Shown: positions 12,015 to 60,581 of the stretch, piece after piece
How the letters are laid out: the number at the start of each line of letters is the position of its first letter
Numbering within the stretch: position 1 is the first letter of the stretch
NCBI GenBank assembly: GCA_035547515.1
Contig: DASZUS010000045.1
Coordinates: forward strand, 97,156-161,155
Length of the DNA: 64,000 nucleotides
Direction: 5' to 3'
Source of the DNA: Mycobacteriales bacterium
GTDB lineage: Bacteria; Actinomycetota; Actinomycetes; JAFAQI01
Translations under genes and position numbers: made by a program
The notes under the pieces: model-generated
Databases searched by the model: none
Told to the model about the DNA's origin: nothing
Seen by the model: the letters and a program-made list of their open reading frames with translations, nothing else

Positions 12015-13708
<1,694 letters not shown>

Positions 13709-14468: not shown

Positions 14469-15482
14469 TCAGCCCGCTGAGCTGATCGGGCTCTTCTTGG
14501 CGACGACGGTCTGGGTCTTCGGGTCCCACACGCCGTACCGCGGGCTGACGTGGACGCCGAGCTTGTTGCCCTCGGCGGTGATCGCCTGCTGCAGCAGCGT
14601 GTTCGCCTGGCTGGAGTACAGGGCTTCCTTGAGCTGCGGCGTCGCTTGCGACAGCGGCACGATGTTGCGGCTGTTGACCCGCACCACCGAGTAGACCCCG
14701 TTGCCGTGCGCGATCCCGACGCTGCCGGGCACGGCGTGCGCGGGGCCGCCGAGCAGCGAGATGATCTCCTTGCGCCCGACCGATCCCACTTCGCCGCCGT
14801 TGGTCGAGGTCGTCGTGTCCAGCGAGTACTTCGACGCGAGGCTCTCGAAGCTCGCTGGGTTGCGCCGGACCTGCGCGAGGATCTGCTGGGCCCGGGCTTT
14901 GGTCGAGACCGCGATCTGCGACACGTCGAGGGTGTCGAACTGGTCGATGTCCTTGCGGTACTCCGCCCGCAGCTGCTGCGGCGTCGCCGGCAGGGACGCC
15001 ACGAGCGCGTCGCTGAGCTCCTGCTGCATCACGGTGTAGCGGATCAGCTCGGGAAGCTGTGCGGGCGTGACGCCGACACTCTCCGCTGCCTGCTGCTGCA
15101 GGGCGCTCATGCTCCCCGCCTGTTGCACGAAGCTCGCGGTCTGATCGCTGATGTCCTTGTCGGTGACCGTGACGTGGTGCGCGGCAGCAGCCTCGGCGAC
15201 CAGCTTCTCGCTGATCAGGCGACCCAGCGTGAGCCGGACGAAGCCGGCCTGGCTGCCGCCGAGGCCAGAGCTGAACTGCGAGTCCGGCGAGAGCGCCGAA
15301 CTGATCGTCGGGTCCTTGAGGGCGGCACCGACCTCGCTCTGCAGCGTGGCGATCGAGATGCGGCTGCCGCCGATGACGGCGGCAGCGTCCGGTGCCGTGT
15401 CGCACCCGGCGAGCACCGGGATGGCGACGGCCGCGAGCGCCGCAACCGCGACCCGGCGTACCGCGGGCAGGCCTGGCTTCAT
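14469..15482 (-). CDS. SurA-N/PpiC-like lipoprotein (putative chaperone/peptidyl-prolyl isomerase)
   Basis: 337 aa. Lipoprotein signal AIPVLAGC, and Gln/Ala-rich chaperone-like regions. Confidence 0.65.
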   Translation of the reverse strand: MKPGLPAVRRVAVAALAAVAIPVLAGCDTAPDAAAVIGGSRISIATLQSEVGAALKDPTISSALSPDSQFSSGLGGSQAGFVRLTLGRLISEKLVAEAAAAHHVTVTDKDISDQTASFVQQAGSMSALQQQAAESVGVTPAQLPELIRYTVMQQELSDALVASLPATPQQLRAEYRKDIDQFDTLDVSQIAVSTKARAQQILAQVRRNPASFESLASKYSLDTTTSTNGGEVGSVGRKEIISLLGGPAHAVPGSVGIAHGNGVYSVVRVNSRNIVPLSQATPQLKEALYSSQANTLLQQAITAEGNKLGVHVSPRYGVWDPKTQTVVAKKSPISSAG

Positions 15483-50366: not shown

Positions 50367-50963
50367 TTGACCGGCCACAACAGCCCGGTGAGCTCGGGGA
50401 CTGCGCTCGGCCTCAGCACGATCAACGGGCTGCCCGCTCACGTGCTGCTCGTCCACCTCGTCGTGGTGTTCGTACCGCTGTCCGGCATAGTCCTGATCGT
50501 CGCCGCAGTTCGCGACAGCGCTGCTCGGCGTCTGGGCATCTGGCTTCCGCTGCTTGCGGCGGTGGCGTTCCTGTCCGTGCTCGCGGCGATGAACGCGGGT
50601 GGCTGGCTGCAGAGCCACGTGGCCAACACCGCGCTGGTCCGCAAGCACACTCAGATCGCAGGGCAGCTCTGGCCGTTCTCCGCTGCGGTCCTGCTGCTTG
50701 CGCTGGTGGTCTGGTGGCGGCGCGGGCGCACGCAGAACATGGGGGCCGATGCGCCCGCTGACGCCGCCCGGTCCGGCTGGCGAGCCCTCGCTCCGCTCGA
50801 TGCCGTCGTCCTCGTGGCGTGTGTGGTGATTGCGGCGGGGTCGATCGTCGAGGTGTACCGGATCGGCGACTCCGGCTCACGCGCCGCCTGGCACAACCAC
50901 TTCAGCGCCGCAGCGACCGCAGAGCGGCCAATCGCTCACGCGGCTCTTGGCCGGAATGACTAG
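50367..50963 (+). CDS. DUF2231-like membrane protein
   Basis: 198 aa. TTG start with GGAGG 5 nt upstream. N-terminus GLPAHVLLVHLVVVFVPL is typical of DUF2231. Confidence 0.65.
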   Translation: MTGHNSPVSSGTALGLSTINGLPAHVLLVHLVVVFVPLSGIVLIVAAVRDSAARRLGIWLPLLAAVAFLSVLAAMNAGGWLQSHVANTALVRKHTQIAGQLWPFSAAVLLLALVVWWRRGRTQNMGADAPADAARSGWRALAPLDAVVLVACVVIAAGSIVEVYRIGDSGSRAAWHNHFSAAATAERPIAHAALGRND

Positions 50964-51149
50964 GGACGAACTACCCGAGATCGCTATGGATCGATCTCGC
51001 TGGCCGACGCACGATGTGTCCGCGACATTCCGTATTGGGACTTTCGGGCGTCCTGCTCGACGGGTTCCGAGTTCGGTAGCGACGGCACCTACACGGTGAC
51101 GGGCTCCGGCTGAGCGTCGCTTTCGCGTCGTTCTGCTGGAGGATTTTCC

Positions 51150-54100
51150 ATGGCTCGCTCGGCTCGTCCTGTCTTGCGCGCCTTCCGCGCGTCCGCGGTC
51201 GCGTTGTCGGTGTCGCTACTCACCTACGGGCTGGTCGCGCTGCCTGCGCAGCCTGCGAGCGCTGCGTCTTCGGCGACGGACGTGTCGTCGCGTCCCGACG
51301 CGGTCTCGGCCGCGCTGTCCGCTCGCCTCGAGGGTCATCGGGTGGCGATCACCGATGACGAGACCGACTCATCGACGACCTACGCGAACCCGGACGGCAC
51401 GTTCACGACGGAGACGAGCCAGGGCCCGGTGCGGGTGGCGCAGCCTGGTGGCGGTTTCGCCCCGCTGAACCTGACGCTCACCCAGAACGCGAACGGCTCC
51501 TACTCGCCGACTACCGCGGCGGCGCCGTTCACCCTCGACAACGGCGGCTCGACGACCGCGGCGACGCTGCCGGAGGCATCTGGCCGCTCGGTTGGCGTGG
51601 GCTGGACCTCGAAGCTGCCTGCCCCGACGGTGTCGGGTGGTACCGCGAGCTATGCGATCTCGAGCACCGAGAAGCTCGTCGTCGCCGCGACGTCGGAGGG
51701 CTTCACCGCGGACGTGGTGCTGACCGCGCCGCCGACGTCGTCGAGCTTCACGGTGACGTTGCCGTTGAGCCTGGCGAAGCTGACCGCGACCCAGGCCGCT
51801 AACGGCACGGTGAGCTTGCAGGACGCTGCCGGTGACACGGTCGCCAGTGCGCATCAGTTCGCGATGTGGGACGCCAGCGCCGGCACGACGCCGTTTCCGG
51901 ACCAGGAGACGGCGGTGCCGACCAAGCTCTCCACCTCCGCGAGCGGCGCACCCGAACTGGTGCTGTCCCCGTCGATGAGCTTCCTGGACAGTCCCTCGAC
52001 GCAGTACCCGGTGACGATCGACCCGAGCATCGGATCCCTCGCCCGCACCGGAAGCACGTTCTGGTACACCAACAACACCAGCCCGCAGGCGGGGAACTAC
52101 GAGCTGATCGTCGGCCCGAACACCAGCGGCTCGGTCGCGTACCGGTCGTTCGTGAACTTCAACGCGAACCCGATCATGGCCTCCCACGTCACCAACGCCA
52201 ACCTGAGCCTCTACCAGATCTACGCCGCGTCCTGCTCGGCGCAGTCGATGACCGCCTACGCCTCCTCGGCGGTCGCGAACTCCAGCACCGTGTGGTCCAA
52301 CGCTCCGGGCAAGAACACCAGCTACAGCGACGCGGTGTCTTCCAACACGGCCGGCCCGAGTTGTAGCCCGGCGCAGCCGTATGGGTCGGAGTCGATCCCG
52401 GTCACCAACATCCTCAACGCCTGGAGCAACGGCACGATCGCCGCCAAGGGCATCCAGCTGTGGGCAACCAGTGAGACGAACACCGCCGCAGGCAAGATCT
52501 TCTGCTCAGAGGTCGTCACCGCCGGCACCACCTGCAACAACTCCGCCTATGAGCCGACCCTGTCAGTGACCTATGACGACTACCCGCAGGTCGCTACCCA
52601 CCTTTCGGCCGAGCCGAGCTCGATCGGGTCCACCGGCAAGACGTACACGACGTCTCTGACTCCCACGCTGCAGGCACTCTCCACGGACCCCGACGGCAGC
52701 AGCAACTATGTTGAGTTCCAGGTCCTTCACGACCCGAGCTACCCGAGCGAAGGCACCGGCAGCGTCTGGACTGGCTACTCACCACTCACCCCGCAAGGCG
52801 CCTCTGCATCGATCAATGTGCCATCCGGACAGCTCGTCAACGGTTACCACTACGAGTGGGAAGCCATCGGCTACGTCCAGAACAGCCTCGGCGGCTACGA
52901 CTTCGCCCCCACCTGGTCGACCATGCAGTACCTCGCCGTCGATAGCAACATCCCCCCGACACCCACTGTCAGCTGCACCGCGTTCCCGTTCGGCTCGTGG
53001 ACCAACGCAAGCCCCGCTGGTGCGACCTGCACCGCGTCGGACTCAGCGGTGGATCTGTCCGGCTTCTATTACTCCTTTGACAACCCCGACCCCGAAACGC
53101 CGGTCACTCAGAGTTCCGGGTCCGCCACCATCACGATGCCCTCCGGCGGCAACACGCTCAGCAACGGAATGCACACGCTGTATGTGCAGGCCTACAACAT
53201 CGCCTACAGCCGATCCGCCACGATCACCCAGTACAGTTTCGGGATCGGCGTCGGCGGTTTGAGTTCGCCAAGCAACGGCCAGACCACCCAGCAGGCCGTC
53301 GTGCTCACCACGACCGCTGCGCCCGCCGAGACCGGCGTCACGTTCAGCTACCGCCAAGGCACTACTGGCACCTGGATCACCGTTCCTACCAGCGACGTGA
53401 CGATCCCTGGCACCAGCACCAACCCCACCTGGCCGCAGGCTATAAGCGGTGGGACCTCCACCCCGCTTGACTGGGATGTAGCCCAAACCATTGCCAACGC
53501 AGGCGGCTCCGACGGACCTCTTCAACTAGAAGCATGCTTCAACCACAGTGGCACGCAGGACGGGTGTTCGGGAAGTACCAATCTCAGCCTGGCGCAGACT
53601 GCGTTTGGCGACAGCCAAGCGACTACCAATGTCGGCCCCGGTTCCTTGTCACTCCTCACGGGGGATCTCGACGTACCGGCGACCGACGTCAACGTCAGCA
53701 GCGTCGGTGGTGGACTTTCCCTCGGACGAGACCTCACCACCTTGGCGCCGTCGACCAGCGACACGGGAGCCGACGGAATCTTTGGGCCCGCATGGAGCGC
53801 CGATCTACCTTCGCCGACAGACGGCTACGCGACTGATTCCCTATTCATGGCTCACGATCTCGGGTACGCGACGTTGACAGGTCCCGACGGCACCGTGTTC
53901 GACTACATCACCCCGAGCACGGGCTACCCGTACGTCTTTACCGGCGAGAGCTCAGCTGACGACGGATCTATCCTTACGCAGCCCTCGATTGACGCTGCCA
54001 ACATCACCGAGTCGGACGGGAGCGTTACGAGTTGGACGCGTAGCGCTGTCGGCTCGCCCTGGGAACTTGCGTCGGTGGTGGTAGCAGGGTCCAACAGCAC

Positions 54101-57100
54101 GACTAGCTACACATACAACGGAGCAGGTCAAGTCGTTCAGGTCGTCGCTCCTACCGCGGCGGGCGTGACCTGCACCAGTCCACTCACTACCCGCGGCTGC
54201 CGCACCCTGACGCTGGCGTATGCCACCTCCACCACGGCCAGCGGTACCAGTCCGTCGCAATGGGGCGACTATTACGACTCAGCGAACGGTGTGGGTCGGT
54301 TGAAGACGGTGCAGTTGACCGCCTACGACCCGTCGTCATCGACCATGACTACGGTCGCGGTGGCTGACTACTCATACGACAGCAACGGAATGCTTCGCGG
54401 CGAGTGGGATCCGCGAATCAGCCCGGTTCTTGAAACGACCTACAGCTATGGAGCCGGCGATCGACTTGCTACCGTCACCCCGCCCGGTCTCACCGGAGAC
54501 ACGATCAACTACGACAGCGAGGGTCGGGTAGCGAGTATCCAGCGGGTTGATCCAGTTAATGGCACAGCCACCCAAGCGATCGCCTACACCGTGCCGATTA
54601 CCGGTAGTGGCGCGCCGATTGACATGTCGGCGAGCGCGACAGATTCGTGGGGCCAGACCACCGACCTGCCGTTTACGGCTACCGAGGTTTTCCCACCCGA
54701 CCACGTGCCAGCGACAGGTAGCAACGGCGACTACGCGCCTTCCGCGACTGACTATCCGTACGGTTCAATCAGCTATCTCGATGTCAACGGCTATAGCGTC
54801 GACGCGGCCGCGTTTGGCGCCGACGCATGGCAGGTGAGCGCGACTCAATACAACGGCAACGGCGGCGTCATCTGGCAACTGAGCGCCGACAACCGCGATC
54901 AGGCACTTAGCCCGACCGCCCAGACGGATCCCCTGGTCGCGGCCATGCCGAACTCGGCAGAACGAGCAGACGCTCTCGCCAGTACAAGCCAATACGCGTC
55001 GGACGGATACGACCTAAGCGACACGTACGGGCCAACCCGGCCGACAGTCCTCGACAACGGTGCGTTGGCGGGAGCCGTCGTGGATGCAAGAGACCACATT
55101 CACTACGTGTATAACCAGGGAGCTCCGGGCGGTGGCTATGACCTCGTCACTGAGACGAGTGAGTCTCCGTCATTCGCACAGTCCGGCTCCTCGGTGATGG
55201 CCGACTACGCCCCCGATACCAGGAGCACCATCGCTGGCTACAACCCGGTGGACGGCTCCGGCGACTCGGGGCCGACCAGCGGCTGGACGCTTAGTGAGCC
55301 GACGTCTACTACGACCGTGATGCCCGGTTCGGGCAACAACATCACTACCGAGACCGAATACGACGCGGATGGCAACGTCATCGAGTCGATCATGCCGAAG
55401 GCGACGAGCGCAGGCGTCGACGCATACACGACCGACACCGGGTACTACACAGCCGGCGCGAACGCGCAGTATCCAGCTTGCGCAAATCGCCCCGAGTGGG
55501 CCGGCTTACTGTGCGAGACCGGACCGGCCGTCCAACCGACAAGCGGACCCCCTGTCCCCACAACAACGACGACGTACAACATCTATGACGAACCACTCGT
55601 CGTAACTGCTACATCGGGTACGGGCGGCGCGATGGCAACCAGGACCACAACCTTCACATACGACGCGGCGGGACGAACCCTGACCACAGGAATCACCGAC
55701 TCATCCAGTGACGCGACGAATGTTCCGACGACTACGACGTCTTATGACCCCGGAACCGGGCTTGCCACGACGATGTCGACCTCGGCGGGCACGATCAGTA
55801 CGGGGTATAACTCGCTTGGCGAGGCGACCAGCTACACGGCACCGACAGGCACCGGGACGAACACCACCACGACGACGTACAACATCGACGGCAACGTCTC
55901 TTCGATCAACGACGGCAAGGGCACGACCACGTTCACCTACAACGGCACCGACAGCCTCGGGCGTGCAGAACATCGCGGACTGGTTACATCAGAGTCGACA
56001 GGAGTCGCGAGCGGCGACACGTTCTCCGGCTCGTACGACGCCGACGGGAACCTTACGAACGAGACCTATCCGAACGGCCTCGTAGCCACTACCGGCTATA
56101 ACAACACCGACGAACCGACGAACTTGACCTACGCGATGGGTAGCTCGACATGGGCAACCTTCGCCGATGCCTACAACGAATTCGGTCAGGTTGTTGATCA
56201 ATCGAGTCCAGAGTCATCCCAACAGATTCAATACGACCAGGACGGCCGCATCAGCCAGGTAGCCGACAACGGCGACGGCACGTGCGTGACCCGCACCTAC
56301 TCATACGACGCCGACTCCAATCGGATCGGGTACACGGTGTACCCCGCCACAAACACAAACCAGTGCTCAACGACAACCACACCGACCGCGAACGAGACGT
56401 CTACTCACGACCAAGCAGATCGGATCACCAACGCCGGCTACACGTACGACAACATGGGCCGGACCACGACGATCCCGGCCGTCGACACTTACGACACCAA
56501 CCCGAGCCCAACGAACTTGACCCTGACGTATTTCGCTGACGACACCGTCCACACGGAGAGTCAGGACGGGGTCACCGACACCTTCACGCTCGACCCGGGC
56601 GGACGCGTTCTCAGTGAGACCAATAGTGGCACTTCCGCCACGGTCACCGACGTCTACAGCGACAGCAGCGACTCACCGGCATGGACGTCTAGTAGCGGCG
56701 GCGGATGGAGTCGGTTCATTCCTGATTTGGCAGGCAACCTGAGCGAGATCGAGACCTCAACAGGCACCGCCAACGCAACGCTCCAACTTGTCAACCTCCA
56801 CGGCGACGTCGTTGCGACCGCTCCGGACTCGAGTGCCGACACCGGCTACAGCAACTACAGCGAGGACACGGAGTTTGGCGCGCCACGTGCGGCGAACGCC
56901 ACCTCGTCCACGACCTATGCGTGGCTTGGGGGTAAGGAGCGGTCGAGTAATACTTTGGGCGGCCTTGTCGTGATGGGAGCCCGGGCCTACTCCCCGACTA
57001 CTGGCAGGTTCCTCACTACCGACCCTATCCGTGGAGCCAGCGCAAATTCCTACGACTACTGCGACCAAGATCCGGTGAATGTCTTTGACATCTCCGGAAC

Positions 57101-57509
57101 AAGTCCAAGTCAGGCATCCGTCAGTGCGCCTACGCCCCTTTGGGTGAGCTTCAACGGCGTCATCGCCTGCAAGCCTCACGAGAACAGCGCCATCCTCGAG
57201 GGCACGGCAAAGATCAATCCCGCGAATTACGCTTGGTACTTCGGTGGGTGGAAGCCATTCCACGTTGTCGACCACGGTGACGTCGAGACCTGGACCACCG
57301 TCCAGAACTCCTATTCGCGTGAAGACATCTATTGCGGCTGTCGAGACGGAAAACCGAGCGAGTGGGGAGTCGGCTACGACCCCGTTCACAGGTTCCACAA
57401 GATCTACTACGACTGCTTCAATCTCTCGTGCGTCTGGTTCGGCGACGCCACGCTGCCCTGGGAAGAAGGGCCTATGGCATGGCACCCGGACTACGACGGA
57501 GATGCCTAG
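51150..57509 (+). CDS. Sec-signal RHS/YD-repeat polymorphic toxin (2119 aa)
   Basis: GGAGG RBS. Signal peptide ending PASA|AS (about residue 38). DNRLRE-like region (about residues 300-477). More than 20 YD repeats (YTYNGAGQV, YSYDSNGML, INYDSEGRV, TEYDADGNV, FTYDAAGRT, IQYDQDGRI, YTYDNMGRT...). RHS core end ARAYSPTTGRFLTTDPIRG...YDYCDQDPVNVFDISG. A 136-aa C-terminal extension follows. Confidence 0.92.
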   Translation: MARSARPVLRAFRASAVALSVSLLTYGLVALPAQPASAASSATDVSSRPDAVSAALSARLEGHRVAITDDETDSSTTYANPDGTFTTETSQGPVRVAQPGGGFAPLNLTLTQNANGSYSPTTAAAPFTLDNGGSTTAATLPEASGRSVGVGWTSKLPAPTVSGGTASYAISSTEKLVVAATSEGFTADVVLTAPPTSSSFTVTLPLSLAKLTATQAANGTVSLQDAAGDTVASAHQFAMWDASAGTTPFPDQETAVPTKLSTSASGAPELVLSPSMSFLDSPSTQYPVTIDPSIGSLARTGSTFWYTNNTSPQAGNYELIVGPNTSGSVAYRSFVNFNANPIMASHVTNANLSLYQIYAASCSAQSMTAYASSAVANSSTVWSNAPGKNTSYSDAVSSNTAGPSCSPAQPYGSESIPVTNILNAWSNGTIAAKGIQLWATSETNTAAGKIFCSEVVTAGTTCNNSAYEPTLSVTYDDYPQVATHLSAEPSSIGSTGKTYTTSLTPTLQALSTDPDGSSNYVEFQVLHDPSYPSEGTGSVWTGYSPLTPQGASASINVPSGQLVNGYHYEWEAIGYVQNSLGGYDFAPTWSTMQYLAVDSNIPPTPTVSCTAFPFGSWTNASPAGATCTASDSAVDLSGFYYSFDNPDPETPVTQSSGSATITMPSGGNTLSNGMHTLYVQAYNIAYSRSATITQYSFGIGVGGLSSPSNGQTTQQAVVLTTTAAPAETGVTFSYRQGTTGTWITVPTSDVTIPGTSTNPTWPQAISGGTSTPLDWDVAQTIANAGGSDGPLQLEACFNHSGTQDGCSGSTNLSLAQTAFGDSQATTNVGPGSLSLLTGDLDVPATDVNVSSVGGGLSLGRDLTTLAPSTSDTGADGIFGPAWSADLPSPTDGYATDSLFMAHDLGYATLTGPDGTVFDYITPSTGYPYVFTGESSADDGSILTQPSIDAANITESDGSVTSWTRSAVGSPWELASVVVAGSNSTTSYTYNGAGQVVQVVAPTAAGVTCTSPLTTRGCRTLTLAYATSTTASGTSPSQWGDYYDSANGVGRLKTVQLTAYDPSSSTMTTVAVADYSYDSNGMLRGEWDPRISPVLETTYSYGAGDRLATVTPPGLTGDTINYDSEGRVASIQRVDPVNGTATQAIAYTVPITGSGAPIDMSASATDSWGQTTDLPFTATEVFPPDHVPATGSNGDYAPSATDYPYGSISYLDVNGYSVDAAAFGADAWQVSATQYNGNGGVIWQLSADNRDQALSPTAQTDPLVAAMPNSAERADALASTSQYASDGYDLSDTYGPTRPTVLDNGALAGAVVDARDHIHYVYNQGAPGGGYDLVTETSESPSFAQSGSSVMADYAPDTRSTIAGYNPVDGSGDSGPTSGWTLSEPTSTTTVMPGSGNNITTETEYDADGNVIESIMPKATSAGVDAYTTDTGYYTAGANAQYPACANRPEWAGLLCETGPAVQPTSGPPVPTTTTTYNIYDEPLVVTATSGTGGAMATRTTTFTYDAAGRTLTTGITDSSSDATNVPTTTTSYDPGTGLATTMSTSAGTISTGYNSLGEATSYTAPTGTGTNTTTTTYNIDGNVSSINDGKGTTTFTYNGTDSLGRAEHRGLVTSESTGVASGDTFSGSYDADGNLTNETYPNGLVATTGYNNTDEPTNLTYAMGSSTWATFADAYNEFGQVVDQSSPESSQQIQYDQDGRISQVADNGDGTCVTRTYSYDADSNRIGYTVYPATNTNQCSTTTTPTANETSTHDQADRITNAGYTYDNMGRTTTIPAVDTYDTNPSPTNLTLTYFADDTVHTESQDGVTDTFTLDPGGRVLSETNSGTSATVTDVYSDSSDSPAWTSSSGGGWSRFIPDLAGNLSEIETSTGTANATLQLVNLHGDVVATAPDSSADTGYSNYSEDTEFGAPRAANATSSTTYAWLGGKERSSNTLGGLVVMGARAYSPTTGRFLTTDPIRGASANSYDYCDQDPVNVFDISGTSPSQASVSAPTPLWVSFNGVIACKPHENSAILEGTAKINPANYAWYFGGWKPFHVVDHGDVETWTTVQNSYSREDIYCGCRDGKPSEWGVGYDPVHRFHKIYYDCFNLSCVWFGDATLPWEEGPMAWHPDYDGDA
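57099..57509 (+). other. C-terminal variable (toxin) domain of the RHS protein, residues 1984-2119, family unassigned
   Basis: Begins right after the DPxN..D.SG core boundary. Has 5 Cys (IACKPH, YCGCRDG, YYDCFNLSC) and is rich in Trp/Tyr/His. No motif I can match to nuclease, deaminase, ART or peptidase toxin families. Confidence 0.6.
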
Positions 57510-57703
57510 CCATGGCACACACCTCAGGACACCGAATACTTGACAGTAAGGAGGCGACGCAGGGCAATGCCGGCACCGAACGTGACGAGGCCTTGGCAGT
57601 CACCGCTTCCAGCGGCGCGCTTCCCAGGAGCGCGGCGACAACCTACTCGATGCGGGGTAGCTCAGAACCTGACCCTAAGGCCAGATTCAGATTGGAGGAC
57701 ATC

Positions 57704-57877
57704 ATGAAGGTCTGGAAAGACCAATGGGTTCCCGGCGACCCGTTGCCAGCACGCGGGCTGCTCCGGGCAGCGGAGAATCTCGACGGTAGAGGAAACCGCG
57801 GTAAAGCCATCGCATGGGTCGCGCTAATCTCGATCCTTGGCGGCATCGCCTTCGTGGCTGTTCAGATCACGCGATGA
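57704..57877 (+). CDS. Small single-pass membrane protein (immunity-module candidate)
   Basis: 57 aa (MKVWKDQWVPGDP...AIAWVALISILGGIAFVAVQITR), with GGAGG 5 nt upstream. An in-frame longer version could start at the ATG at 57512, 2 nt after the RHS stop. Confidence 0.45.
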   Translation: MKVWKDQWVPGDPLPARGLLRAAENLDGRGNRGKAIAWVALISILGGIAFVAVQITR

Positions 57878-58266
57878 GACCGTCAGTCTCTCACGATCTT
57901 CCGAGCCGTGGTGCGGCCTTGGCCGCGCTCTGTCTGTTCGTGGTGCTGATCAGCGCCTGCGGGAGTGGTACACCCTCTACGTCAAGCCAGTTGCGACCGA
58001 TGGCTACGAGCTCGGCCCGGGGCCAAACGCCCGCCGATATCGCCTGCGATGACTTCGCTCGTTTTGTTGATAGCCATTCTGCTGCGGATTTGGCCGCAGC
58101 AGTCAGCACATCTCGCAGCATCCGAGGCGCGGGTCGCGCCGCTACAAATGTGAGCGCCGACATCGCTACCTACGTAGAACAGAAGCGGGCGCACGCCAAG
58201 GAGTTTCTTGCAGCGACGACGGCCGCAATTGAGCACGACTGCGCGAGCCTTCCACACAGGGTTTGA
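57874..58266 (+). CDS. Small lipoprotein (immunity candidate)
   Basis: 130 aa. Its ATG overlaps the upstream TGA (ATGA). Lipobox LFVVLISAC. The mature part of about 100 aa is helical-looking and has two further Cys. Confidence 0.6.
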   Translation: MRPSVSHDLPSRGAALAALCLFVVLISACGSGTPSTSSQLRPMATSSARGQTPADIACDDFARFVDSHSAADLAAAVSTSRSIRGAGRAATNVSADIATYVEQKRAHAKEFLAATTAAIEHDCASLPHRV

Positions 58267-58365
58267 GTGGCCACCCTACTAAGGAGGGTCGGGGTCGGGA
58301 GGGACTGCCCCGTGAAGCGCCCCAGGTTTGATGCCGCCTCCTTGTGAGTCCAGGAGGATGGTGTC

Positions 58366-58520
58366 GTGCCGAAGAAGATTGATCCGAAGGTAACGCAGCG
58401 TTGCGTTCAGCAGATCCTCGAGCACGTGCAGGAGCACCGAACCCGACCGCGGCGGCGGAGGTCAGCGCGGGGCTCTGGCAGGCGTGCGCAGACAGAGCCA
58501 GGCTCGGCACCGGTCGCGAC
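58366..58520 (+). mobile_element. Degenerate remnant of an IS3-family transposase orfA (N-terminal HTH region only, frameshifted)
   Basis: A GTG start with an AGGAGG RBS gives MPKKIDPKVTQRCVQQILEHVQEH. The next frame continues PNPTAAAEVSAGL...LGTGRD. This parallels the MPKKIDPEV..AVRLV.EH..EYPSLTAA..AVA.QLGVGRES pattern of IS3 OrfA proteins (from memory). No orfB or inverted repeats found. Confidence 0.35.
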
Positions 58521-58545: not shown

Positions 58546-59001
58546 TCAGGCCGGGCTTGGTGCCGGCCGAGCTTCCTGGATCTGCTCGAGCATGGCGCGG
58601 ACCTTCGATGGTCTGTACGACCCTGTAGGCATCGCCCGCACCACCTCTCCCGAGTTCAAGATGAGCGCCACGCACGTCGCGCGGCCGGTGACGTTGCCGC
58701 TGTCCACGATGGTCAGATCGCGGACGCTCTCCCAACTGAAGACCTTCGTCGATCCGATATTTCGAATGGTGACCGTCCTCGGGCCGACCTCGACGCCAAG
58801 TCGGAGGGAACGGAGCGCTGCGGCGGCAAACGCGACAGCCACAAGTCCATCCCCGACTTGGTCGCCGTACGTCGGATCGGAATGAGCCCCGCGAACGGCG
58901 GCGCCCAGCGCGAACGCCGCGGCGAGCAGGCCAGTAGCGGAAAACACGCCATAGGTCTGCGCGCGGTTAGTGATCAGCACGTCGCCCGGACCGAGCCGCA
59001 C
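58546..59001 (-). CDS. Membrane protein with bacterial PH-like domain (paralogue 1)
   Basis: 151 aa. Two N-terminal TM helices, then VGPRTVTIRNIGSTKVFSWESVRDLTIV...VALILNSGEVVRA. Same architecture as the neighbouring gene. Confidence 0.55.
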   Translation of the reverse strand: MRLGPGDVLITNRAQTYGVFSATGLLAAAFALGAAVRGAHSDPTYGDQVGDGLVAVAFAAAALRSLRLGVEVGPRTVTIRNIGSTKVFSWESVRDLTIVDSGNVTGRATCVALILNSGEVVRAMPTGSYRPSKVRAMLEQIQEARPAPSPA

Positions 59002-59028: not shown

Positions 59029-59499
59029 TCACACCGCCTCCATCCGACGCGAGCTGATCAGTTCGTTGAGCGCAGCGATGAGCTCGTTGTCCTGCGCCAT
59101 GCGCTTGGCGCCCGCGAATGAGGCGGTCGCGAGACCTTCGAGACGGATCTTCTCGCCCGAGGCGAGGAGCAAGGTGCCCGCCCGTCCACGAGATAGGGTG
59201 ATGCTTTCCACTTCAGACCACCTGAAGGTCCTCACATCGAAGTAGTTTCGCACTTTCATCCCGGCGTCCGAGACGAAGACGCCGGACCGCGCGCCCGCAG
59301 CGAAGATCACCGCAACAGGAACGACCGTGGCTGCGATGACAATGCGGACGCCTACTGGGTACTGCGCATCGCTGATCGGCGCCGCCCCGATGAGAAGCGT
59401 GACTGCGGCAGCCGTCAGCCCACAGCGCCGGGCAAACCTCGTCTGGATGAGCTCACGATCCAACGTGGCACGCGAAGCGCGACGTCGGCGCGGCCTCAC
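59029..59499 (-). CDS. Membrane protein with bacterial PH-like domain (paralogue 2)
   Basis: Start set at the GTG at 59499. TM helices, then VSDAGMKVRNYFDVRTFRWSEVESITLS...LLLASGEKIRLEG. The upstream part of the 220-aa ORF looks non-coding. Confidence 0.55.
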   Translation of the reverse strand: MRPRRRRASRATLDRELIQTRFARRCGLTAAAVTLLIGAAPISDAQYPVGVRIVIAATVVPVAVIFAAGARSGVFVSDAGMKVRNYFDVRTFRWSEVESITLSRGRAGTLLLASGEKIRLEGLATASFAGAKRMAQDNELIAALNELISSRRMEAV

Positions 59500-59909
59500 G
59501 AGGCGACCCCGGTTCCTTTGAAAGCCCAGTCGCCACCAGCGCCAAGTCTGACCTGATGCTCGCGGTCGGACACAACCCGGCGCCGCGTCGCGGTCATCCC
59601 GGTCGGATGATGGGAGATCACCACCGCCCCCGGCGTCACGCTGCAAACAAGACTGAGATAACGACGCGCATGCGGACCTCCCCCAACCCATATCCCGGCG
59701 CCCCTACCGGCTGTCGGCACCGGCAGTTCAGGCTGGCGATCCTGGCACGGCCAAAGCCGCGCGTCAGGACACTCTGATAGGCCAGATGGATGTTGGGGTC
59801 GGGGCGGCCCTCGGAATAGGCCTGTCTGTCATGGTGGACATACTTGCCTTCTGACGCAGCGCGGGCACGTCCTCCTCGTCAACAGCTACAGACTTGGGAG
59901 GTGTCTTCC

Positions 59910-60581
<672 letters not shown>

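Follow-up and report, generated by a model that had tools for sequence, protein, structure and literature searches.

Tips of WapA toxins are tRNases, and the corresponding immunity proteins are soluble and cytoplasmic. Immunity proteins placed in or outside the membrane have been described as well, e.g., for the Rhs protein Tse5 of Pseudomonas aeruginosa, a T6SS-delivered toxin with a PAAR-like domain and a hydrophobic, pore-forming tip, whose immunity protein Tsi5 is encoded alongside and is an integral membrane protein with two transmembrane helices (PMC9637101, PMC10684867). In Bacteroidetes, the RHS-borne Tox-JAB-1 is paired with Imm65, the sole lipoprotein immunity in the survey that reports it (PMC3482391). 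TelC of Streptococcus intermedius exerts its action beyond the membrane, in the wall zone, and the immunity domain of TipC is anchored on the outer face of this membrane (PMC6193138). For EsxX, a glycine-zipper depolarising LXG toxin of Staphylococcus aureus, both polytopic (ExiCD) and soluble (ExiAB) immunity proteins were reported (PMC12744356). Little is understood of how RHS toxins that Gram-positive and actinobacterial cells secrete by Sec get to their targets.

The locus described here lies in a window of 64,000 nucleotides, i.e., the whole stretch of DNA that was analysed, and starts with a large carrier gene and its tip:

51150..57509, plus strand: RHS/YD-repeat polymorphic toxin gene, 2119 aa (ORF list, Pfam, TIGR03696)
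57102..57506, plus strand: variable C-terminal tip, presumed toxin, 135 aa (aa 1985–2119), beginning where homology to relatives ends

The carrier combines YD repeats with an RHS-associated core domain, as seen from matches to RHS_repeat in Pfam (6.6e-13), to TIGR03696 Rhs_assc_core at aa 1909–1983 (3.8e-13) and to YD_repeat_2x, and the gene ends with a TAG stop codon at 57507–57509. A Sec-type signal peptide, read off the sequence, covers aa 1 to ~38 (MARSARPVLRAFRASAVALSVSLLTYGLVALPAQPASA, followed by ASS), and the conserved core closes in a DPxG-like motif (...YDYCDQDPVNVFDISGT) at aa 1984. The tip behind this motif is hydrophilic, acidic (pI 4.85) and devoid of a transmembrane segment; it contains 8 Trp, 8 Tyr and 5 Cys residues, the latter spaced as CxC...Cx4C, and its AF2 model was unusable (pLDDT 32).

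The protein match to the closest RHS relative L005 (71% identity over the aligned core) and to L006 (59%) and L007 (55%) stops at query residue 564/565, corresponding to aa 1984, and in blastn the homology to L005 reaches no further than 57092, leaving 9 nt to the tip. The tip consequently differs among otherwise similar homologues, and the small genes right downstream change with it, the downstream ORFs of the relatives being unrelated to those found here. Since homology to the closest relative does not extend past the junction of core and tip, the tip and the genes behind it constitute a swapped cassette. L005 and L006 likewise have their first downstream ORF right behind the RHS stop (ATGA overlap or 11 nt apart); it encodes a transmembrane protein in L005, while L006 features a lipoprotein and then a transmembrane protein. 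Including L008 and L009, where transmembrane or lipoprotein ORFs likewise follow the RHS gene, such ORFs were observed at four related actinobacterial loci. Codon models trained on the RHS gene of each relative gave negative margins for these mostly membrane-protein ORFs, and we take the codon test as uninformative for them and base their assignment on sequence features. Downstream genes of more distant actinobacterial RHS loci encode soluble proteins, and distant plasmid-borne relatives carry K/R-rich tips followed by soluble Asp/Glu-rich ORFs. The tips of L005 and L007 are glycine-rich and hydrophobic, reminiscent of Tse5-CT.

Behind the tip, the cassette continues with the following elements:

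57498..57501, plus strand: GGAG, Shine-Dalgarno (SD) sequence for ATG 57512, 10 nt upstream, weak to moderate (-6.6 kcal/mol)
57512..57877, plus strand: 121-aa ORF, favoured coding layout (codon-frame test; gene calls of four assemblies)
57694..57698, plus strand: GGAGG, SD sequence for ATG 57704 with a 5-nt spacer, the strongest of the region (-12.3 kcal/mol)
57704..57877, plus strand: shorter 57-aa reading of this ORF from an internal ATG, a possible isoform or else the true start (SD strength)
57800..57874, plus strand: C-terminal transmembrane helix, residues 97–121 (AIAWVALISILGGIAFVAV), Kyte-Doolittle 19-mer mean 2.5
57874..58266, plus strand: 130-aa lipoprotein precursor (lipobox rule, codon-frame test)
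57946..57960, plus strand: lipobox L-I-S-A-C, residues 25–29, with the Cys29 codon at 57958–57960 (lipobox rule)

The original prediction had placed this pair directly downstream of the toxin, and indeed only 2 nt separate the RHS stop from ATG 57512, with both genes lying within the part exchanged along with the tip. Start and frame of the in-frame version from 57512 were correctly anticipated, but its length is 121 aa rather than 122 (122 codons including the TGA at 57875–57877). The 57-aa ORF with its GGAGG ribosome-binding site, the terminal transmembrane helix and the overlap of the TGA with the ATG of a LISAC lipobox protein (ATGA, 57874–57877, 4 nt) were all recovered as predicted. The gene calls listed for four public assemblies contain the same two genes, the first of them starting at 57512, and no gene with a product exactly equal to the 57-aa version is on record.

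The 121-aa protein comprises a hydrophilic N-terminal part of ~96 aa without signal peptide, the first 64 residues of which are of low complexity, and one C-terminal helix in a tail-anchor-like arrangement, immediately preceded by RGNRGK. In the codon-frame test, performed with two independently trained models and 2000 shuffles for each comparison, the score of the whole ORF was reached by 0–6 shuffles and that of its part in the 195-nt gap alone by 4–141, favouring the 121-aa frame through this gap. The start of the first gene is nevertheless ambiguous, as the best SD sites serve ATG 57704 and a 46-codon ORF in another frame (ORF46), not ATG 57512. With its anti-SD duplex, ATG 57704 belongs to the best 0.25% of the 1582 start-like triplets that the window contains, and because the strongest ribosome-binding site precedes this ATG, a short 57-aa isoform is possible. 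An RNA element in the gap was considered and rejected (no Rfam match; fold z-score -0.34).

The second gene has no SD sequence of its own at ATG 57874 (-1.5 kcal/mol). Its N-terminus (MRPSVSHDLPSRGAALAALCLFVVLISAC) passed a PROSITE-PS51257-style rule for lipoprotein substrates of Lgt/LspA (positive N-region, hydrophobic core, [LVI][ASTVI][GAS]C, Cys at position 15–35) with R2 and R12, a hydrophobic core at residues 13–28 (KD 2.24) and I-S-A-C ending in Cys29. The signal peptide (residues 1–28) is followed by a Ser/Thr/Gly/Pro linker and by ~75 aa predicted to form a helical domain, which includes Cys58 and Cys123; the mature protein has 102 aa. AF2 placed helices at 53–66, 70–79 and 81–125 with low confidence (pLDDT 61), and Foldseek searches with this model gave no structural match (best E-value 1.7). 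Of 2000 shuffles, 1–69 reached the codon-frame score; GC3 gives a weak signal (GC1/2/3 of 0.61/0.61/0.63). An earlier start at ATG 57814, giving a 150-aa lipoprotein, was discarded: the extension has a GC3 of 0.45, it overlaps the region coding for the transmembrane helix, and the cysteine would fall at position 49. A terminator-like hairpin at 57910–57929 was discarded as well; it lies inside the region coding for the signal peptide, has no proper T-run, and such sites are fewer than expected from shuffles.

Tip, 121-aa protein and lipoprotein are orphans in every collection searched. A k-mer-indexed search of 5.8 billion proteins returned the lipoprotein and the 121-aa ORF themselves without any further match, and for the tip no match at all, and an exhaustive phmmer search of 1.84 billion representatives with the lipoprotein gave, besides itself, three signal-peptide/low-complexity matches that are not homologues. 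No relative emerged from metagenome scans with the tip and the 121-aa ORF, none from plasmid tblastn with the tip, and when all fetched loci and the window were searched by tblastn with the three proteins, no paralogues appeared. Likewise, Pfam, NCBIfam, PHROGs and PDB sequence searches, the last by phmmer for the 121-aa protein and the lipoprotein, yielded nothing significant for any of the three. Known immunity families (Imm65, Imm-CdiI, Imm17, SUKH and others) are covered by Pfam and NCBIfam, where the 121-aa protein had no match (E ≤ 0.1 and E ≤ 1, respectively) and the lipoprotein sub-threshold signal-peptide matches only; a second Pfam scan at E ≤ 10 gave nothing for either.

We consider the chances about even that this locus is an RHS toxin–immunity cassette with exported immunity, implying an envelope-acting toxin. 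The two overlapping genes behind the tip are probably self-protection genes, a role we infer from their position only, since none of the three proteins has a known relative. The RHS protein would be exported by Sec and enclose the 135-aa orphan tip, whose presumed toxicity derives from its membership in the RHS family. The 121-aa protein is predicted to keep its N-terminal part in the cytoplasm and its single C-terminal helix in the membrane, and the 57-aa isoform may be made as well. Synthesis of the lipoprotein probably occurs by termination-reinitiation, in step with the toxin, because stop and start overlap and the gene has no ribosome-binding site of its own. Lipidated at Cys29, this protein would be anchored on the outside of the cytoplasmic membrane, with its small, probably disulfide-stapled helical domain placed where the incoming tip arrives. 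Cysteines come in close pairs in the exported RHS body; together with the exactly two cysteines in the mature lipoprotein domain, this would fit disulfide-bonded extracytoplasmic proteins.

We propose that one or both proteins represent the cognate immunity, acting at or in the membrane; the tip would in consequence attack the envelope, be it a wall precursor, the membrane or a surface protein, and not nucleic acid. The tip does not look nuclease-like, as it has no family match and is acidic, unlike the K/R-rich tips of the plasmid-borne relatives, which counts for the envelope reading. The transmembrane or lipoprotein ORFs behind the RHS genes of L005, L006, L008 and L009 count for it by analogy, and the soluble downstream products at the more distant actinobacterial loci count against it. 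Pfam, NCBIfam, PHROG and PDB revealed no nuclease, deaminase or other nucleic-acid-targeting domain, and the nuclease-type tip presupposed in the original prediction has no support in these searches or in the pI of 4.85; a novel nuclease, compatible with the lack of a family match, is possible. Also possible is a two-part immunity. A more far-reaching version, which we regard as doubtful, combines a novel envelope-acting toxin fold with a two-protein module of tail-anchored membrane protein and lipoprotein, forming either one extracytoplasmic complex or inner and outer compartment-specific immunities. If true, the unrelated membrane-protein/lipoprotein ORF pairs of L006 and L009, which also follow RHS genes, would suggest a design that recurs in this lineage of RHS proteins.

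Among the rival explanations, the one surviving best, although we consider it unlikely, assigns immunity to the first gene alone, directed against a cytoplasm-acting tip, or splits immunity between compartments; the lipoprotein would then be an accessory, a second outer layer or unrelated cargo. Here, the ~96-aa N-terminal part would face the cytoplasm, tail-anchored, and catch the imported tip. Consistently, the gene right after the toxin is normally the immunity gene and most immunities are cytoplasmic (PMC3482391), the codon test backs the 121-aa frame through the gap, and the CxC...Cx4C arrangement in the tip could equally be the zinc site of a cytoplasm-acting enzyme. EsxX offers a precedent of distinct cytoplasmic and membrane immunities existing side by side (PMC12744356). 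However, the N-terminal 64 residues are hydrophilic, of low complexity and without family match, and the strongest SD sequence would begin translation past them. Moreover, the lipoprotein, having no SD sequence of its own, probably depends on the first gene for translation, which argues for a shared function.

It is improbable that the two ORFs exist by chance or are in decay within a rearranged island, with the true immunity gene lost to an IS3 event or never present, e.g., in the case of a eukaryote-aimed tip. This explanation draws on one further element:

58310..58421, plus strand: IS3-family left-end remnant, cutting the cassette 44 nt after the lipoprotein stop (blastn)

The remnant matches IS3 transposase ends on Gordonia, Rhodococcus and Frondihabitans plasmids, and at 58341/58342 four independent assemblies have a break; the sequence of the four public assemblies equals that of the window at 100% identity, without variation among them. 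The rearrangement of the locus, documented by the remnant, could have removed a soluble immunity gene. The orphan status of all three proteins, the weak GC3 periodicity and the fact that long spurious ORFs arise in high-GC genomes point in the same direction. Nevertheless, an equally hydrophobic segment occurs in just 9 of 640 stop-to-stop ORFs (at least 57 codons, whole window), and the lipobox rule was passed by 6 of 2048 start/ORF combinations in the window, two of them with a real, convincing hydrophobic core. Neither feature is likely to arise by chance, and their coincidence in adjacent, ATGA-overlapping ORFs is very unlikely. In addition, both independently trained models give a codon-frame signal above that of shuffles, and the lipoprotein shows the typical linker and a two-Cys helical domain. 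Based on codon signal, transmembrane helix, lipobox and the 2-nt and 4-nt junctions, both downstream ORFs look like real genes.

A different coding layout, which we hold to be quite improbable, would leave 57512–57566 non-coding and join three genes by ATGA overlaps, namely ORF46, the 57-aa protein (57704–57877) and the lipoprotein:

57567..57707, plus strand: 46-codon ORF (ORF46) in another frame, judged non-coding (GC3, codon-frame test)

The two strongest SD sequences of the region serve exactly the starts of ORF46 (-11.1 kcal/mol) and of the 57-aa version, the TGA of ORF46 (57705–57707) overlaps ATG 57704, an overlap that the original prediction does not mention, and TAAGGAGG, found at 57547–57554 ahead of the ORF46 start at ATG 57567, occurs just twice in the 64 kb. 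In contrast, the GC3 of ORF46 is only 0.54, its frame loses the codon test by 23–36 log units, with ~93% of shuffles scoring higher, whereas the 121-aa frame wins it over the same bases, and its Arg/Pro-rich product (pI 11.9) resembles an out-of-frame read. Furthermore, the spacer between SD sequence and ATG amounts to 12 nt, and the first downstream gene of the relatives abuts the RHS stop. The coding layout, left unresolved in the original prediction, is thereby narrowed: ORF46 preceded by TAAGGAGG is present as described, but GC3 and codon test disfavour it and favour the 121-aa frame. A role of TAAGGAGG as flanking repeat was rejected, as the surroundings of the two copies are dissimilar and no similarity extends beyond either.

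A lysis lipoprotein is the last product encoded in colicin operons, and some Tc-toxin clusters rely on lysis cassettes similar to those of phages. That the pair helps to release the large toxin or to lyse the cell, in the manner of a holin, a spanin or a colicin lysis protein, is still a most improbable explanation, although the order of the two, with the small membrane protein first and the lipoprotein overlapping it, resembles lysis architecture: the RHS protein carries its own Sec signal peptide, no holin, spanin or lysis protein matched in PHROG (E ≤ 0.1) or Pfam, the membrane helix is C-terminal, unlike in i-spanins, and not N-terminal as in the membrane partner of a lysis cassette, the mature lipoprotein exceeds colicin lysis proteins in size, and the ORF list holds no endolysin-like ORF nearby.

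In its present state, the immunity reading is an annotation-level inference on an orphan cassette, for which we propose a mechanism. If it holds, the locus would contribute a toxin fold and an immunity pair that are both new, from a soil lineage that has been little studied, and no import step would be required of an envelope-acting tip. Joint action of the two proteins would make this one of the rare cases in which an RHS toxin has multi-part immunity.

Compared with known systems, the carrier corresponds most closely to WapA/Rhs-type proteins such as Bacillus subtilis WapA-WapI, with which it shares the Sec-exported RHS/YD architecture, the DPxG-like core end, the exchanged hypervariable tip and the small genes immediately downstream (PMC3482391). 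It differs from WapA in its orphan tip without nuclease signature and in that both downstream proteins are predicted to be membrane-bound or exported. With Tse5-Tsi5, the cassette has in common an Rhs-encapsulated tip and an adjacent gene for a membrane protein, here the putative immunity, whereas the tip here is hydrophilic and acidic, a lipoprotein is added, sequence similarity is lacking, and the 121-aa protein has one C-terminal segment and no homologue found, compared with the two helices of Tsi5. Tox-JAB-1/Imm65 stems from another phylum; the tip has no JAB match and the lipoprotein no match to any known family. TelC-TipC, a Gram-positive toxin with extracytoplasmic, membrane-anchored immunity, matches the proposed arrangement, but TelC is a T7SS LXG toxin and not an RHS protein, TipC is held by an N-terminal transmembrane helix instead of a lipid, and no similarity exists. 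The EsxX-ExiAB/ExiCD system resembles a two-part immunity in having more than one immunity protein per toxin, with parts for different compartments that include membrane proteins, but it contains neither a lipoprotein nor an RHS protein. The view that membrane or lipoprotein immunity is unusual for RHS systems was overstated, given Tse5-Tsi5 (PMC9637101), Imm65 (PMC3482391) and the four related actinobacterial loci. Exported or membrane immunity is already established in Tse5-Tsi5, Imm65 and TelC-TipC, and the cassette described here would join that kind.

The exchanged part of the RHS locus carries two coding-like and tightly joined ORFs, the first encoding a membrane helix and the second a lipoprotein signal. 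Seven related RHS loci were found, and the match to the three closest ends at the core/tip junction (identity of 71% to L005, 59% to L006 and 55% to L007), while DNA homology to L005 covers 50955-57092 with no resumption beyond. Consequently, the tip and the downstream genes were exchanged as a unit, as is expected of a polymorphic toxin. The closest relatives of the RHS gene are found in genomes of uncultured Mycobacteriales and Propionibacteriales, and the locus has those hallmarks of an RHS polymorphic toxin cassette that can be tested. It belongs to a lower-GC island reaching from ~51.8 kb to a tRNA-Ala gene (GC about 0.60–0.64 vs. 0.70–0.76 in the flanks; window 68.5%), with the following features:

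51150-57509, + strand, RHS/YD-repeat protein of 2119 aa (Pfam RHS_repeat match; TIGR03696 RHS-associated core at aa 1909-1983)
57102-57506, + strand, C-terminal tip of 135 aa, the remainder after the core end at aa 1984
58310-58421, truncated left end of an IS3-family element, starting 44 nt past the lipoprotein stop
58546-59001 and 59029-59691, - strand, two adjacent bacterial PH-domain (bPH_6) genes, matches just at the Pfam threshold
59844-60302, + strand, acidic ORF of 152 aa between the bPH_6 genes and the tRNA (GC3 0.58; coding status uncertain)
60506-60581, - strand, tRNA-Ala(cgc), adjoining the island end (~60500)

The island thus contains the RHS gene, two small genes, the IS remnant and the two bPH_6 genes, and what it has in common with L005 is limited to the RHS gene plus its promoter region (from 50955); no family match was obtained for the 152-aa acidic ORF. 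The 3' end of the exchanged unit is not mappable because the flanks are not syntenic and the IS3 left end lies downstream. Against IS3 ends on plasmids of Gordonia, Rhodococcus, Microbacterium and Mycobacterium, this remnant shows 76–86% identity, and it retains only ~25 codons of a transposase-like frame. Four independent public assemblies break within it, at 58341/58342, so that further copies exist in the genome.

The RHS protein starts with a Sec-type signal peptide, as read directly from the sequence, and its core terminates ...YDYCDQDPVNVFDISGT at aa 1984. Cysteines of the RHS body lie in close pairs (362/405, 452/462, 609/627, 796/806, 1008/1017, 1444/1455, 1712/1739), which suggests disulfides in an exported shell; Cys1971 is part of a conserved YDYCDQDP motif common to L005, L006, L007 and L009. 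With a pI of 4.85 and a net charge of -9, the tip is acidic; it contains 5 Cys along with 8 Trp and 8 Tyr and showed no hydrophobic segment in composition analysis; its CxC...Cx4C spacing could form a zinc site.

Every feature listed in the original prediction was found in the sequence, with one correction of length: the ORF opening at ATG 57512, 2 nt past the RHS stop, encodes 121 aa, the predicted 122 including the stop codon. An internal ATG at 57704, in frame and with GGAGG 5 nt upstream, gives the predicted 57-aa version, and both share the ending AIAWVALISILGGIAFVAVQITR, a C-terminal TM helix whose 19-residue hydropathy of 2.5 is matched in 9 of the 640 window ORFs of at least 57 codons. 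ATGA at 57874-57877 joins the stop of the 121-aa ORF to the start of the 130-aa ORF, whose N-terminus MRPSVSHDLPSRGAALAALCLFVVLISAC satisfies a PROSITE-style lipoprotein rule with Cys29. This rule is satisfied by 6 of 2048 window ORF starts, only two of which have a convincing hydrophobic core, namely the 130-aa ORF and the start at 15482(-). The former fits the sequence definition of a lipoprotein; the latter, a 337-aa ORF with MKPGLPAVRRVAVAALAAVAIPVLAGC..., is the one further place in the window where a lipoprotein signal is convincing. The predicted 46-codon ORF (ORF46; ATG 57567) lies in another frame downstream of TAAGGAGG at 57547-57554, and its TGA overlaps ATG 57704 (ATGA), making ORF46, the 57-aa version and the lipoprotein a fully coupled chain on paper. 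Just two copies of TAAGGAGG occur in the 64-kb window (expected 0.36), at most 734 nt apart; the second (58280-58287) lies 14 nt past the lipoprotein stop and is not followed, ahead of the IS3 end, by a start codon at SD distance. It may be a ribosome-binding site left behind by the loss of a downstream gene, or a chance occurrence.

Regarding function, the RHS protein would be exported via Sec and its tip freed at the core-end motif, as known for the RHS family. Coupled translation would supply the two small proteins, the lipoprotein may be lipidated at Cys29, and one or both could act at the membrane surface to shield the producer as well as its siblings; protection there would imply a tip acting on the envelope. 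We consider the chances of such exported immunity at the membrane against an envelope-acting tip to be evenly balanced. The paired cysteines of the RHS body and the two of the mature lipoprotein domain (Cys58 and Cys123, close to opposite ends of the helical domain) fit disulfide-bonded exported proteins. A rather unlikely alternative is a tip that acts in the cytoplasm, where the N-terminal part of the 121-aa protein, tethered to the membrane, would catch it; the lipoprotein would then be an accessory or an outer layer.

Among related loci, the more distant actinobacterial RHS genes, carried on plasmids (Arthrobacter, Frondihabitans, Streptomyces), have K/R-rich tips and soluble, Asp/Glu-rich downstream proteins without transmembrane segment or lipobox, the classical cytoplasmic pattern. 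In contrast, the near loci carry membrane or lipobox ORFs that are predictions only, the codon test being uninformative for them: in L005 the RHS stop overlaps, by ATGA, an ORF with two hydrophobic segments (a two-helix membrane ORF), in L006 (12054-13078) a 135-aa lipobox ORF 11 nt past the RHS stop is followed by an 80-aa membrane ORF, L008 has a polytopic membrane ORF, and L009 (12955-13894), disrupted by a transposase gene, has a membrane ORF and a Cys-rich lipobox ORF. Exported partners would therefore be a recurring minority type, apparently concentrated in the lineage nearest to the window. The tips of L005 (11672-12106) and L007 (7243-7559) end glycine-rich and hydrophobic (e.g., GMGAGGMVGG...GGVIGGIGGCIAGAV) and recall membrane toxins of the glycine-zipper type, such as Tse5-CT and EsxX. 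The lipobox/small-membrane ORF pairs of L006 and L009 are unrelated to the pair described here; in L006 the lipobox ORF additionally has a partial paralogue (12806-13078), and L009 has an orphan RHS-tip fragment between its two ORFs.

That the downstream ORFs are chance or decaying frames is improbable. GC3 periodicity is indeed weak in this region (the lipoprotein has GC1/2/3 of 0.61/0.61/0.63, the 57-aa part 0.66/0.50/0.67; tip GC3 0.76), and therefore six-frame triplet models were built from two training sets (28 high-GC3 window genes; the RHS body) and every candidate ORF was compared with 2000 shuffles of itself. In both models the whole 121-aa ORF outscores all five other frames by a margin reached by at most 6/2000 shuffles, the gap part alone (57512-57703) stands 14–15 log units above the two other sense frames (4–25/2000), and the lipoprotein frame ranks top (1–69/2000). 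The gene lists of four public assemblies from this strain likewise contain the 121-aa and 130-aa genes. Still less probable is a layout of ORF46, the 57-aa protein and the lipoprotein, although the strongest anti-SD duplexes precede ATG 57704 (-12.3 kcal/mol, top 0.25% of start-like triplets) and ATG 57567 (-11.1), as against -6.6 before ATG 57512 and -1.5 before ATG 57874. Ribosome-binding strength thus points the other way from the codon-frame evidence, in which ORF46 falls behind by about 23 log units, with ~93% of shuffles scoring higher. Its Arg/Pro-rich product (pI 11.9) is what high-GC DNA typically yields when read out of frame. On codon statistics we regard ORF46 as unlikely to be coding and lean towards the 121-aa form as the main gene, with a 57-aa isoform plausibly also made. 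Since the lipoprotein ATG has no SD of its own, its synthesis probably relies on reinitiation at ATGA. The gap matched no known RNA family and its RNA fold is not unusual. A role of the pair as release or lysis helper is very improbable.

Tip, 121-aa protein and lipoprotein are orphans, none matching Pfam, NCBIfam, PHROG or the PDB. For the lipoprotein, an indexed search of 5.8 billion proteins gave no homologue, exhaustive phmmer against 1.84 billion representatives gave three weak matches, all to signal peptide or low complexity, and known immunity families gave none; for the 121-aa protein and the tip, the indexed search, two metagenome scans and plasmids yielded no homologue. The AF2 model of the tip (pLDDT 32) is unusable, and that of the lipoprotein (pLDDT 61), without structural match in Foldseek, shows three helices (53-66, 70-79, 81-125) behind a signal helix and a Ser/Thr/Gly/Pro linker that is disordered. 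The bolder version of exported immunity, in which the toxin fold would be new and envelope-acting and the immunity would consist of two exported proteins, is a tentative proposal that we think doubtful.

The original prediction thus held as an observation and in part as an interpretation. Its sense that membrane or lipoprotein immunity is rare was fair, because a 2012 survey finds nearly all immunity proteins cytoplasmic (PMC3482391), but precedents exist. By analogy, the cassette would function like TelC-TipC, in which a Gram-positive cell exposes the immunity domain on the outer side of its membrane (PMC6193138), and would resemble Tse5-Tsi5, an Rhs tip with membrane immunity (PMC9637101). 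Imm65, the sole lipoprotein immunity of the survey, is RHS-linked like the lipoprotein described here (PMC3482391), and EsxX with ExiAB and ExiCD sets a precedent for multi-part immunity (PMC12744356). The cassette is a new, orphan addition to an already known sort of system.
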